Program-made: the position numbers and the translations under genes
Source of the DNA: Escherichia coli
Lineage (GTDB): Bacteria; Pseudomonadota; Gammaproteobacteria; Enterobacterales; Enterobacteriaceae
Strand: one strand, 5' to 3'
Length of the DNA: 64,000 nt
Assembly: GCF_003334815.1 (NCBI RefSeq)
Contig: NZ_QOWO01000006.1
Notes under the pieces: model-generated
The model's input: only the letters and a program-made list of their open reading frames with translations
The model's database searches: none
What the model was told of the DNA's origin: nothing
Part shown: in pieces, positions 26,231-37,089 of the stretch
Layout: every line of letters begins with the position of its first letter
How positions within the stretch are numbered: position 1 is the first letter of the stretch

Positions 26231-28249
26231 TTAGACGGCAATAGCGATTAGCAGCACAACCAGTGCGGCGACCACATACAGGCAATAGAGACGAAAGTCG
26301 CCGCTTTGCAGATGCTGTATTTCTTTGGCCAGCCGTTGGGTGGCGCTCACGATGGGGCGGATCACCCGCTCATCCCAGAAGGGTTCTGTGCTCTGAGCCC
26401 TGGCGGTGACGTGCGCAAGACCTTTATTTAGCCTCAGCGTAGGGTCGAGCTGTTGTCGTAGACGAAATAGCGCAGAAAAGACCACACGCAGCGGCTGCAT
26501 CACGCCATTGCCTGACGGGGCCATCGCATTTTCCCAGCCGTAGCCGCATGCCCAGGCATCTCCTGTGCGACGAAACGCTGCGCGGCGCGAACGACACCAC
26601 AGCCAGTAAAGGCCAGGCAGCAAAGGCATCGCCAGTAGTAACAGCAACAGTAATGAGGGGGTGACCTGTGTATGAAACGTGCCGGGTACAAGTGCTATTC
26701 CGCTGGCGACAGTGGCGGGAGGGGTATTGGTAAACGCATGGGCAATATGCATTATCTTCGGTGCCAGCCAACTGGCACTAAGCGCAATTAATACGCAGAG
26801 TGCCGCGAGCAGTAGCATGGCGACGATCATCGTATTTGGCACTTCCTGTGCCTCTTCAGCGTGTGTACTGCGCGGCGCACCACAGAAAGTAATACCGTAC
26901 ATTTTTACGAAGCACATTACTGCCAGCCCACCAGTGACTGCCAGCATTACCATAGCAATAGGACCCGCAAGTTGTAGCGCTACGGCTTCCACACGACTTA
27001 GTGAGAACAGCGACTGCCAGGTGTACCATTCGCTGATAAAACCATTCAGCGGAGGAATGGCTGATATCGCGAGGCAACCAATCAGGCATGCTGCGGCTGT
27101 CCACGGCATCCGTTTCGCTAGTGCCCCCATTTTTTCCATGTCGTGGGTATGCAAACGCGAAATAATCGCTCCCGCGCCGAGAAATAGCAGCCCTTTGAAC
27201 AGCGCATGGTTGAGCAGATGAAACAGTGCGCCGAGCAGTCCAACCACGGTGAGCAGCGGGTCGTGCAGTGACAGACCGACCATCGCCACACCGACTGCCA
27301 GCAAAATAATGCCGACGTTTTCGACGGTACTCCAGGCCAGCAGCCGTTTGATATCCTGTTCCGCCAGCGCATATAGCACGCCCAGGAGCGCGGAGATTGC
27401 GCCGATCGCCATCACCAGAATGCCCCACCACAGAGGCAAACCCGTTTGCGCCAGCAGATCCATCGCTACTTTCAGGATGCCGAAAATACCTATTTTGACC
27501 ATTACGCCAGACATCAACGCCGAAGCGTGCGATGGTGCGGCAGGGTGAGCGCGCGGCAACCAGCTGTGCAACGGCATCATCCCGGCTTTCGCGCCAAAAC
27601 CGAAAAAGGCCAGCAGGAACACCGCCGACGCCAGCCCCGGAGAAAGTGAAAGCGTGCGGAAACTGGCAAAATCGAGGCTGCCGCTTTCGCGCCCCATCAG
27701 CAAGAAGGCGATCATTATCAGCACCGATCCGGCGTGGGCGATAAAAAAGTAGAGCATGCCAGCGTTGATCGACGTTTTATCCTGCCTGGCAATGACCAGA
27801 AACCAGGAAGACAGCGACATCATTTCAAACAGCACGATGAACCAAAAAGCGTTGTCCATCACCAGCAGGGCAACCATCGATGCGATGAAAATATTCATAA
27901 AGAAGCCCATCGCCGCCGCGCCTTTGCCCTCGTATTCGCGCATATAAGTCAATGAATAGAGAGAACAAACCACCACCAGCAAGGAGATAACCAGCACCAT
28001 AAATGCCGAGAGGCTATCCATTCGCAGGGTTAAATCGGCAAATTCAAAAGGGGTGGCAAAACGGGCGACTAAAGTTACACCAGCATGTAATTGCGTAATT
28101 CCGCTGATGATGCCAATCACGCCGCCCACCAGCGATGTGATGCCGGAAAGCTTAATAGCCAGTCTGTCCAGACCGAGTAAAAACAGCGAAGCCAGACTAG
28201 CAAACAGATAGAGAATCAGCGACCAGGTTAATAATTGCAGGGCATCCAT
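26231..28249 (-). CDS. hyfB: Hydrogenase-4 membrane subunit HyfB (NuoL/M/N antiporter-like)
   Basis: 672 aa polytopic membrane ORF. Confidence 0.93.
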   Translation of the reverse strand: MDALQLLTWSLILYLFASLASLFLLGLDRLAIKLSGITSLVGGVIGIISGITQLHAGVTLVARFATPFEFADLTLRMDSLSAFMVLVISLLVVVCSLYSLTYMREYEGKGAAAMGFFMNIFIASMVALLVMDNAFWFIVLFEMMSLSSWFLVIARQDKTSINAGMLYFFIAHAGSVLIMIAFLLMGRESGSLDFASFRTLSLSPGLASAVFLLAFFGFGAKAGMMPLHSWLPRAHPAAPSHASALMSGVMVKIGIFGILKVAMDLLAQTGLPLWWGILVMAIGAISALLGVLYALAEQDIKRLLAWSTVENVGIILLAVGVAMVGLSLHDPLLTVVGLLGALFHLLNHALFKGLLFLGAGAIISRLHTHDMEKMGALAKRMPWTAAACLIGCLAISAIPPLNGFISEWYTWQSLFSLSRVEAVALQLAGPIAMVMLAVTGGLAVMCFVKMYGITFCGAPRSTHAEEAQEVPNTMIVAMLLLAALCVLIALSASWLAPKIMHIAHAFTNTPPATVASGIALVPGTFHTQVTPSLLLLLLLAMPLLPGLYWLWCRSRRAAFRRTGDAWACGYGWENAMAPSGNGVMQPLRVVFSALFRLRQQLDPTLRLNKGLAHVTARAQSTEPFWDERVIRPIVSATQRLAKEIQHLQSGDFRLYCLYVVAALVVLLIAIAV

Positions 28250-29118: not shown

Positions 29119-29589
29119 TCAGGCGTGTTCTTTCAGCCAGTTCAGCACAACGTCGTGGTGATTGCTGGTTTTGAAATCGTCAAAGACATGTTCGATTTTG
29201 CCATCAGCGTCAATCAGGAAGCTGATGCGATGAATGCCATCGTAGGTTTTGCCCATGAAGGACTTTTCACCCCAGACGCCGAATTGTTCGCACACCTGGT
29301 GGTCCTCATCAGACAGGAGCGTAAAGTTAAGCAGCTCTTTTTCCGCAAAACGGGAGAGTTTTTCGGGTTTATCGGTGCTGATACCCAGCACATCAACGCC
29401 CGCTTTTTTCAACTCATCCATGTTATCGCGTAAGCCGCAGGCCTGTACGGTACAGCCGGGGGTCATGGCTTTCGGGTAGAAATAAACCAGAACACGCTGT
29501 CCCTGGAAGTCGGTCAAATTAACTTGTTCTCCGTCTTGATCCGGCAAGCTAAATTTCGGTGCGATATCACCGGCTTTCAGTGGATTCAT
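29119..29589 (-). CDS. bcp: Thiol peroxidase Bcp (peroxiredoxin)
   Basis: 156 aa, MNPLKAGDIAPKFSLPDQDGEQVNL...FYPKAMTPGCTVQAC (peroxidatic Cys). Confidence 0.95.
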   Translation of the reverse strand: MNPLKAGDIAPKFSLPDQDGEQVNLTDFQGQRVLVYFYPKAMTPGCTVQACGLRDNMDELKKAGVDVLGISTDKPEKLSRFAEKELLNFTLLSDEDHQVCEQFGVWGEKSFMGKTYDGIHRISFLIDADGKIEHVFDDFKTSNHHDVVLNWLKEHA

Positions 29590-30161
29590 TACTTAACTCC
29601 ATCCTGTTCATCATGTTGGGAATAATTGACGACGTTAATACTGCCTTGTGCATTGAGTTCTGTACATAGGGCTTTGAACGCTTGCTCAATATTTGCTGCG
29701 TCCGCAGATGCGGGGCTGTGGGCGGTTATCTGAATATGCAACTGCGCAGCCCGTTCATTTTCAGCAGGTTGCGTGCGCGACACCAGCTCCGCAATGTTCA
29801 TATGATGCGCGTCGAAAAGTGCTGTGAAGCGTTCAATTAAATGCGGGGAGTCTGCCACATCGACCTGAACCCAGACAGATGCTGGCATTGGCGGACGCGG
29901 ACGCGCCGTCGTGCGCTTCATCACGATTAAAAGATCCAGTTCGGCACCTTTCAACGGTAACGTTGATTCAATCAGAGTAATGGCATTCCATGAACCGGAA
30001 AGCAGCATAATAAACGTGAACTCTTCTCCCAGCATCGCCAGGCGACTGTCTTCAATATTACAGCCGCAACTACTGACATGACGGGTGATGGTGTTCACAA
30101 TTCCAGGGCGATCGGCACCCAACGCAGTGATCACCAGATAATGTTGCGATGACAGTGTCAA
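29589..30161 (-). CDS. gcvR: Glycine cleavage system transcriptional repressor GcvR; TTG start
   Basis: Track ORF 29589..30227; start assigned to TTG at 30161-30159 giving (M)TLSSQHYLVITALGADRPGIVN..., 190 aa; stop TAA overlaps bcp ATG as TAATG. Confidence 0.85.
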   Translation of the reverse strand: MTLSSQHYLVITALGADRPGIVNTITRHVSSCGCNIEDSRLAMLGEEFTFIMLLSGSWNAITLIESTLPLKGAELDLLIVMKRTTARPRPPMPASVWVQVDVADSPHLIERFTALFDAHHMNIAELVSRTQPAENERAAQLHIQITAHSPASADAANIEQAFKALCTELNAQGSINVVNYSQHDEQDGVK

Positions 30162-30306
30162 ACTGGTTATTCCTTTAAGGGGTGAGTTGTTCTTAAGGAA
30201 AGCATAAAAAAAACATGCATACAACAATCAGAACGGTTCTGTCTGCTTGCTTTTAATGCCATACCAAACGTACCATTGAGACACTTGTTTGCACAGAGGA
30301 TGGCCC

Positions 30307-31185
30307 ATGTTCACGGGAAGTATTGTCGCGATTGTTACTCCGATGGATGAAAAAGGTAATGTCTGTCGGGCTAGCTTGAAAAAACTGATTGATTATCATG
30401 TCGCCAGCGGTACTTCGGCGATCGTTTCTGTTGGCACCACTGGCGAGTCCGCTACCTTAAATCATGACGAACATGCTGATGTGGTGATGATGACGCTGGA
30501 TCTGGCTGATGGGCGCATTCCGGTAATTGCCGGGACCGGCGCTAACGCTACTGCGGAAGCCATTAGCCTGACGCAGCGCTTCAATGACAGTGGTATCGTC
30601 GGCTGCCTGACGGTAACCCCTTACTACAATCGTCCGTCGCAAGAAGGTTTGTATCAGCATTTCAAAGCCATCGCTGAGCATACTGACCTGCCGCAAATTC
30701 TGTATAATGTGCCGTCCCGTACTGGCTGCGATCTGCTCCCGGAAACGGTGGGCCGTCTGGCGAAAGTAAAAAATATTATCGGAATCAAAGAGGCAACAGG
30801 GAACTTAACGCGTGTAAACCAGATCAAAGAGCTGGTTTCAGATGATTTTGTTCTGCTGAGCGGCGATGATGCGAGCGCGCTGGACTTCATGCAATTGGGC
30901 GGTCATGGGGTTATTTCCGTTACGGCTAACGTCGCAGCGCGTGATATGGCCCAGATGTGCAAACTGGCAGCAGAAGGGCATTTTGCCGAGGCACGCGTTA
31001 TTAATCAGCGTCTGATGCCATTACACAACAAACTATTTGTCGAACCCAATCCAATCCCGGTGAAATGGGCATGTAAGGAACTGGGTCTTGTGGCGACCGA
31101 TACGCTGCGCCTGCCAATGACACCAATCACCGACAGTGGTCGTGAGACGGTCAGAGCGGCGCTTAAGCATGCCGGTTTGCTGTAA
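30307..31185 (+). CDS. dapA: 4-hydroxy-tetrahydrodipicolinate synthase
   Basis: ATG 30307, [19 protein letters not shown]..., 292 aa. Confidence 0.95.
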
Positions 31186-36995: not shown

Positions 36996-37010
36996 AAGAC
37001 AGATTACCTG

Positions 37011-37089
37011 GCCTGATAAGACGCGTGAGCGTCGCATCAGGCATCGTTCACCATTGCCGGATGCGGCGTTAACGCCTTATCCGGCCTAC
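37011..37089. repeat. REP elements (pair) between ypfH and ypfN
   Basis: GCCTGATAAGACGCGTGAGCGTCGCATCAGGC and GCCGGATGCGGCGTTAACGCCTTATCCGGCCTAC. Confidence 0.8.

Follow-up and report, generated by a model that had tools for sequence, protein, structure and literature searches.

The gcvR–bcp gene pair of Escherichia coli: the conserved TTG start codon of gcvR and its one-base overlap with bcp

UUG is the start codon of about 3% of E. coli genes (Hecht et al., preprint). Initiation from AUG, GUG and UUG was reported in the same preprint at 10-100% of the AUG level, with UUG being weaker than AUG. gcvR resembles other bacterial genes of this type in that UUG is combined with a normal Shine-Dalgarno (SD) sequence, here for a low-abundance regulator, and differs from them in the unusual stability of its TTG, which was present in 80/80 Enterobacteriaceae sequences and in four other families. 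The gene product is the glycine cleavage system transcriptional repressor, a protein with tandem ACT domains. The transcription start of gcvR has reportedly been mapped 27 bp before the UUG initiation codon, and expression of the gene is said to be constitutive and low. In the literature, GcvR is described as binding GcvA and glycine and as repressing gcvTHP (Ghrist et al., 2001; Heil et al., 2002). The closest solved structure is that of the GcvR-like protein of Vibrio cholerae (PDB 1U8S; 192 aa, tandem ACT domains, about 40% identity), which was aligned over residues 6-183 (E = 3.7e-39). Residue 4 of this protein aligns to residue 6 of E. coli GcvR, and its N-terminus is thus short as well. 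In the relatives of about 40% identity recovered in the analysis, the start codon is ATG and a spacer is found before bcp. Neighbouring genes of bacterial operons may be joined by overlapping junctions of the types TAATG, TGATG and ATGA, and the gcvR/bcp junction belongs to the same one-base type as hyfA/hyfB and purM/purN. Classical translationally coupled pairs are known for matched outputs or for an unmasking of the downstream start. The gcvR/bcp pair differs from these, since the two outputs are about 7-9-fold apart and no masking is predicted.

The window analysed here is the whole stretch of 64,000 nt of E. coli DNA (contig NZ_QOWO01000006.1 of assembly GCF_003334815.1). According to the RefSeq annotation, the local order on the E. 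coli chromosome is hyf – bcp – gcvR <> dapA – bamC. gcvR and bcp are both on the minus strand, and features of the two genes are given on that strand below. The coding sequence of gcvR occupies positions 29589-30161 (573 nt, 190 aa plus stop), and RefSeq WP_000176187.1 maps to it exactly. The first-pass annotation had given 29586 as the lower coordinate of its entry on gcvR and bcp. This position belongs to the second codon of bcp, past the bcp ATG, and the gcvR coding sequence was found to end at 29589. GcvR scored 398.4 bits (cut-off 267) against the NCBIfam equivalog NF008612, with residues 1-189 falling on profile positions 1-189. The tandem ACT domains were supported by the presence of PF13740, PF01842 and PF13291 in homologues, and by an end-to-end alignment with 1U8S. 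bcp, at positions 29119-29589, encodes a thioredoxin-dependent thiol peroxidase of 156 aa (RefSeq WP_001068682.1). Its product matched NCBIfam NF006960 (Bcp / PrxQ peroxiredoxin) over the full length with 309.9 bits (cut-off 140), and the peroxidatic cysteine was present in a PGCT motif (...AMTPGCTVQAC...). Many complete E. coli genomes matched a 1.4-kb query around gcvR/bcp with 100% identity, and the query was found in 5,426/5,426. E. coli K-12 gcvR (b2479, UniProt P0A9I3) and bcp (b2480, P0AE52) have the same sequence and the same coordinates, with no difference. The gene pair is the well-known gcvR-bcp pair of E. coli and nothing in it departs from known biology; gcvR, its TTG start and the neighbouring bcp are textbook annotation and already known. 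Elsewhere in the window, hyfB (26231-28249, minus strand) is intact with 672 aa. In the record of strain ER1709 the gene carries a frameshift flag, and beyond hyfB the window and this record are therefore offset by 1 nt. No Rfam families were found in the gcvR region. The only RNA family matches in the window were to the REP-type repeat naRNA4, at 37010-37086 and 61797-61878.

The initiation codon of gcvR is TTG at 30161-30159 (minus strand). The N-terminal sequence T L S S Q claimed for this start was confirmed, as the TTG is followed by ACA CTG TCA TCG CAA. That it is the real start of gcvR was likewise borne out by the agreement of the RefSeq/PGAP start, conservation, the SD sequence and the mapped transcription start. 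The TTG at 30161 is a strongly supported start codon and already accepted annotation, not a new one. For the comparison, 80 loci were fetched from different Enterobacteriaceae species. One was not alignable, and with the window included 80 sequences were analysed. The homologous start codon was TTG in all of them (79 other species and the window). In the same 80 sequences, gcvR has 14 invariant internal leucine columns, each encoded by three to six synonymous codons, with TTG making up 0-30%. Since TTG is held at the start position while the internal leucine codons drift, this codon does not behave as a sense codon, and its invariance in the alignment is clearly non-random. Furthermore, 26 of the 80 sequences lack any in-frame ATG, GTG or TTG as far as the next upstream stop, which is 7-31 codons away, and in these the TTG is therefore the sole possible start. 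Erwinia, Dickeya, a Yersiniaceae member and Edwardsiella, representing four other families of the Enterobacterales, likewise have TTG preceded by the SD sequence ACAGGAAG. Farther out, a relative of 68% identity has a GTG start, and relatives of about 40% and 32% identity have ATG starts. Initiation from a non-AUG codon is thus stably maintained in the Enterobacterales.

The SD sequence of gcvR, AAAGGAA at 30170-30176 (minus strand), is located 8-9 nt before the TTG and was kept as AAAGGAA or ACAGGAAG in all aligned relatives. The predicted anti-SD duplex has an energy of -5.6 kcal/mol, which is within the best 12% or so of the background (11.7% reach -5 kcal/mol or better). Among the three candidate starts, TTG 30161, TTG 30227 and TTG 30224, only the first has an SD sequence. 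The short form also agrees with the equivalog model NF008612 (189 positions), which begins at its residue 1. RNA around the gcvR start was predicted to fold no better than shuffled sequence. No entry for gcvR was found in the supplements of TRAINSPOTTER, of the tetracycline ribosome profiling study or of the Salmonella riboproteogenomics paper. A full-text literature search on the start codon of gcvR returned nothing relevant. A second and rarer non-AUG start is present in the window. For hda (DnaA inactivator, 233 aa), RefSeq places the start at CTG 11291-11293 (plus strand), which is followed by N-T-P-A-Q, and the maximal open reading frame begins 15 codons upstream, at 11246. The non-AUG start of hda has already been described in the literature.

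At the junction of the two genes, the sequence TAATG (29587-29591, minus strand) contains the gcvR stop codon TAA at 29591-29589 and the bcp ATG at 29589-29587. One A, at 29589, is shared. The overlap of stop and start reported in the first-pass annotation is thus real, and the RefSeq limits of both genes agree with it. TAATG was the junction in 57/80 Enterobacteriaceae sequences, TGATG in 5/80 and ATGA in 3/80, with a 2-nt gap in 8/80 and a 3-nt gap in 7/80. In none of the 80 sequences was the distance between gcvR and bcp outside the range of -4 to +3 nt. In Dickeya and the Yersiniaceae member the two genes are separated by a 2-nt gap, in Edwardsiella by a gap of 19 nt, and in Erwinia they overlap by 23 nt. 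The gcvR frame of Erwinia (locus L082, 1769-1791) runs 23 nt into bcp and gives the protein the C-terminal tail ...KMESCDESTESR. This tail is the 5' end of bcp read in another frame, as the usual gcvR stop has apparently been lost. Two relatives of about 43-44% identity have spacers of 48-75 nt before bcp with synteny kept, in a relative of 37% identity bcp is preceded by about 1 kb, and in a relative of 32% identity the downstream gene is not bcp. The gene order dapA <> gcvR – bcp predates the overlap. Overlaps of this kind are not restricted to gcvR and bcp. In the RefSeq annotation of the window, other 1-nt overlaps are found for hyfA/hyfB and purM/purN, and 4-nt overlaps for eutA/eutH, pta/eutT, eutT/eutQ and hyfH/hyfI. 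With gcvR/bcp counted, seven out of about 42 neighbouring pairs on the same strand have 1- or 4-nt overlaps. An overlap of stop and start by 1 nt is commonplace and not special in itself. No terminator-like site was found between gcvR and bcp, the only ones on the minus strand being inside or after bcp.

bcp was found to have a ribosome binding site of its own. The SD sequence GGAG at 29597-29600 (minus strand) falls in the final codons of gcvR, 7 nt upstream of the bcp ATG, and the 80 loci share the motif GATGGAG. The downstream gene of a coupled pair is expected to have a weak or masked ribosome binding site. The bcp site, with its ATG start and a predicted anti-SD duplex of -6.5 kcal/mol (among roughly the best 6% of the background), was not weak, and no RNA structure masking the bcp start was found, as the junction folds no better than shuffled sequences (z = 0.14). 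In Dataset EV9 of Mori et al. (2021), Bcp makes up a mass fraction of about 6.0e-4 and GcvR one of about 8.7e-5, and the Bcp/GcvR ratios in two further proteome data sets were similar. In molar terms, Bcp is present at steady state at about 7-9 times the level of GcvR, a ratio to which differing protein stability could contribute. Most bcp initiations therefore cannot be due to ribosomes handed on from gcvR, and the excess argues against a 1:1 hand-over.

The excess of Bcp could also be due to transcription. bcp might be expressed largely from its own promoter or promoters inside gcvR, the overlap being of little bearing on expression, a possibility which we regard as rather doubtful. Three transcription starts within gcvR are assigned to bcp in Table S1 of Kim et al. 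(2012). Those at 2598090 and 2598170 (positions 29999 and 29919 of the window) have 5 and 6 reads, respectively, and the third, at 2598487 (+) with 11 reads, corresponds to position 29602 (minus strand) of the window, only 13 nt before the bcp ATG. A possible promoter for this candidate start is located at the right distance, with TTAACG at 29638-29633 and CATGAT at 29615-29610 separated by a 17-nt spacer. The hexamers did not, however, reach the threshold set in the promoter scan, the read counts are low in a table with many low-count internal sites, and a 13-nt leader beginning just before the SD sequence would be unusually short. In addition, a difference in translation between TTG and ATG can account for the Bcp/GcvR ratio without a second promoter. 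The internal 5' ends, with 5-11 reads, may represent weak internal promoters or processing sites.

Translational coupling of the two genes, as proposed in the first-pass annotation, was found to be less probable still. If bcp were truly coupled, ribosomes ending at the TAA would re-initiate at the ATG, and bcp output would depend on the translation of gcvR. The geometric part of the proposal stood. The genes are on the same strand, their stop and start are within a few nucleotides of each other in all 80 sequences, and the absence of a terminator between them agrees with the co-transcription expected of a coupled pair. A dependence of bcp on gcvR goes beyond this geometry. bcp has a good SD sequence and an ATG of its own which are not hidden by stable structure, and the 7-9-fold excess limits hand-overs to a small share of bcp initiations at most. 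The 19-nt gap in Edwardsiella and the 48-75-nt spacers of more distant relatives, where synteny is retained, as well as the frequency of such overlaps in the window, also speak against true coupling, which we regard as unlikely. Re-initiation is permitted by the overlap, and dependence of bcp on gcvR is not demonstrated by it. At most, coupling could plausibly make a minor contribution to bcp expression.

The main transcription start of gcvR is at 30188 (minus strand) and results in a 5' UTR of 27 nt. It is listed as 2597901 (+) with 27 reads in Table S1 of Kim et al. (2012), where the coding sequence begins at 2597928, and the published upstream sequence, ending in ...CCTTAAGAACA, was mapped to position 30188 of the window. 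A weaker start of the same table, at 2597829 (+) with 17 reads, corresponds to 30260 (minus strand) and to a 5' UTR of 99 nt. The main 5' end is thus located between TTG 30161 and the two upstream TTG codons, and the 99-nt leader includes the latter. Since mRNA starting at 30260 contains TTG 30227, the transcript map by itself is compatible with upstream initiation as well.

A near-invariant block extending from GTTGTATGC to GTTTTTTTTATGCTTTCCT, at 30196-30225 (minus strand), was shared by 69 distinct upstream sequences and was kept in other families of the Enterobacterales. Judged by its conservation and position, this block is the probable core promoter of gcvR. The promoter hexamers are tentatively assigned as TTGTAT (30224-30219) and TTTCCT (30201-30196) with a spacer of 17 nt, a geometry which fits the published transcription start at 30188. 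The assignment is tentative because TTTCCT is a poor match to a -10 element. Between the putative -35 and -10 hexamers, the spacer contains an invariant run of eight T at 30207-30214 (minus strand). A 1-bp deletion in the gcvR promoter was reported for two endpoint strains in a laboratory-evolution survey (PMC7382830). A homopolymer such as the T8 run would be a likely site for a deletion of this kind. The promoter predicted by Shimada (2014), TTAAAA-18-TCTGAT, was rejected, as its second hexamer is not conserved and it fits neither of the mapped transcription starts. A generic promoter scan of the gcvR strand in the intergenic region found nothing. On the opposite strand, the dapA transcription start of Kim et al. 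(2012) fits a conserved TTGCTT-18-TACCAT. The promoter sequences of the weaker gcvR start (30260) and of the dapA start overlap in back-to-back orientation at 30260-30307. The conserved block of these overlapping promoters is CTCAATGGTACGTTTGG, in which ATGGTA on one strand corresponds to TACCAT on the opposite one.

The region directly upstream of gcvR (30162-30227, minus strand) is read by ORF finders as an extension of 22 codons and is a non-coding 5' region. In the first-pass annotation the frame was extended by these 22 codons to an ATG at 30227, considered as probably unused. The 22 further codons (66 nt) reaching 30227 were confirmed. The first codon, at 30227-30225, is however TTG, and an ATG at 30227 does not exist. 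An in-frame TGA (30230-30228) directly precedes this codon, and a second TTG is found at 30224. The nearest ATGs, at 30220-30218 and 30205-30203, are not in the frame of gcvR. They open a frame of 18 codons (17 sense codons and a stop) which ends with TAA at 30169-30167. A regulatory upstream frame starting at these ATGs was rejected, as its length and stop vary among genera (Citrobacter and Kluyvera stop after 3-4 codons) and both ATGs are upstream of the main transcription start.

That the extension is probably unused was upheld by several lines of evidence. No SD sequence was found before the upstream candidates, with duplex energies of 0.0 kcal/mol for TTG 30227 and +0.2 kcal/mol for TTG 30224, and the addition of the 22 codons did not increase the NF008612 score (397 bits with and 398 bits without them). 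The reading frame is not kept either, as upstream indels are not multiples of three, even within Escherichia. The C-run of the gcvR leader (30182-30179, minus strand) has four C in the window, five in the representatives of two other Escherichia species and eight in E. albertii. In these Escherichia, the altered length of the C-run shifts the out-of-frame ATGs into the gcvR frame, which would mislead ORF callers. A 12-nt insert upstream of gcvR was observed in the Pseudescherichia vulneris group (L036, L065, L070). A GcvR of 211-212 aa initiated at TTG 30227 or 30224 is highly improbable, despite the open frame, the minor transcript containing both codons and the long forms annotated in databases for Salmonella, Klebsiella oxytoca and others, since both codons lack an SD sequence and precede the main transcription start, relatives without any upstream start and non-triplet indels break with such a form, the annotated long forms use three frames of the same DNA without a gain in family score, and TTG 30161 would be an ordinary leucine codon and yet is TTG in every sequence.

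N-terminal extensions of 2-55 residues were found in 30/116 GcvR cluster representatives of the protein database. The extended entries include P0002, P0006-P0010 and P0061 and come from Salmonella, Klebsiella oxytoca, Kluyvera, Kosakonia, Serratia and others. Among the extended entries, the conserved promoter block is read in three frames, as ...LYAGFFYAFL..., MPVFFMLSL... and MFFLCFPY..., and 29/30 have leucine at the TTG position. The near-invariance of the block, the non-triplet indels and the use of three reading frames together indicate conserved regulatory DNA and not coding sequence. By this comparison, the extensions are probably mis-annotations of the start site, in which promoter DNA has been called as coding. 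A different kind of gene model was observed for protein P0030, a 331-aa 'hypothetical protein' attributed to the fungus Astraeus odoratus, which combines GcvR (89% identity) with AhpC-TSA/Redoxin domains. The entry resembles contaminating enterobacterial DNA, with gcvR and the overlapping bcp fused in a single gene model.

The locus is very probably best explained as the known gcvR-bcp pair, with GcvR made from TTG 30161, bcp translated mostly through its own GGAG and ATG, and the overlap being compact packing. The gcvR mRNA would begin mainly 27 nt before the TTG, and the GcvR protein of 190 aa would be initiated there by means of the AAGGA SD sequence 9 nt upstream. The 22 upstream open codons would be promoter and leader DNA without coding function. 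Across the Enterobacterales the weak TTG has been held fixed, likely to keep the repressor GcvR low. bcp would be carried on the gcvR transcript, its ATG overlapping the gcvR stop by one base, and would be translated mostly by ribosomes binding at its own site, possibly also from short internal transcripts. Initiation at this site could result in the roughly 7-9-fold higher level of Bcp compared to GcvR. Some re-initiation at the overlap may occur and would not be the main determinant of bcp output.

A further reading, which could equally well be right or wrong, is that the TTG is a selected dosage setter, keeping GcvR scarce relative to GcvA, and that the overlapping, independently initiated bcp is made in about eight times the amount from the same transcript. 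By this reading, an ATG start and a spacer before bcp would have been replaced by GTG or TTG and an abutting bcp, and the change would be placed at the base of the Enterobacterales.

For the organism, the finding is of little discovery value, as the gene, its TTG start and the neighbouring bcp are all standard. A stop/start overlap is not proof of coupled translation, as is seen from GcvR and Bcp, which differ about 7-9-fold. For the family, roughly a quarter of the database GcvR entries (30/116 cluster representatives) carry extensions which are almost certainly mis-called promoter DNA.
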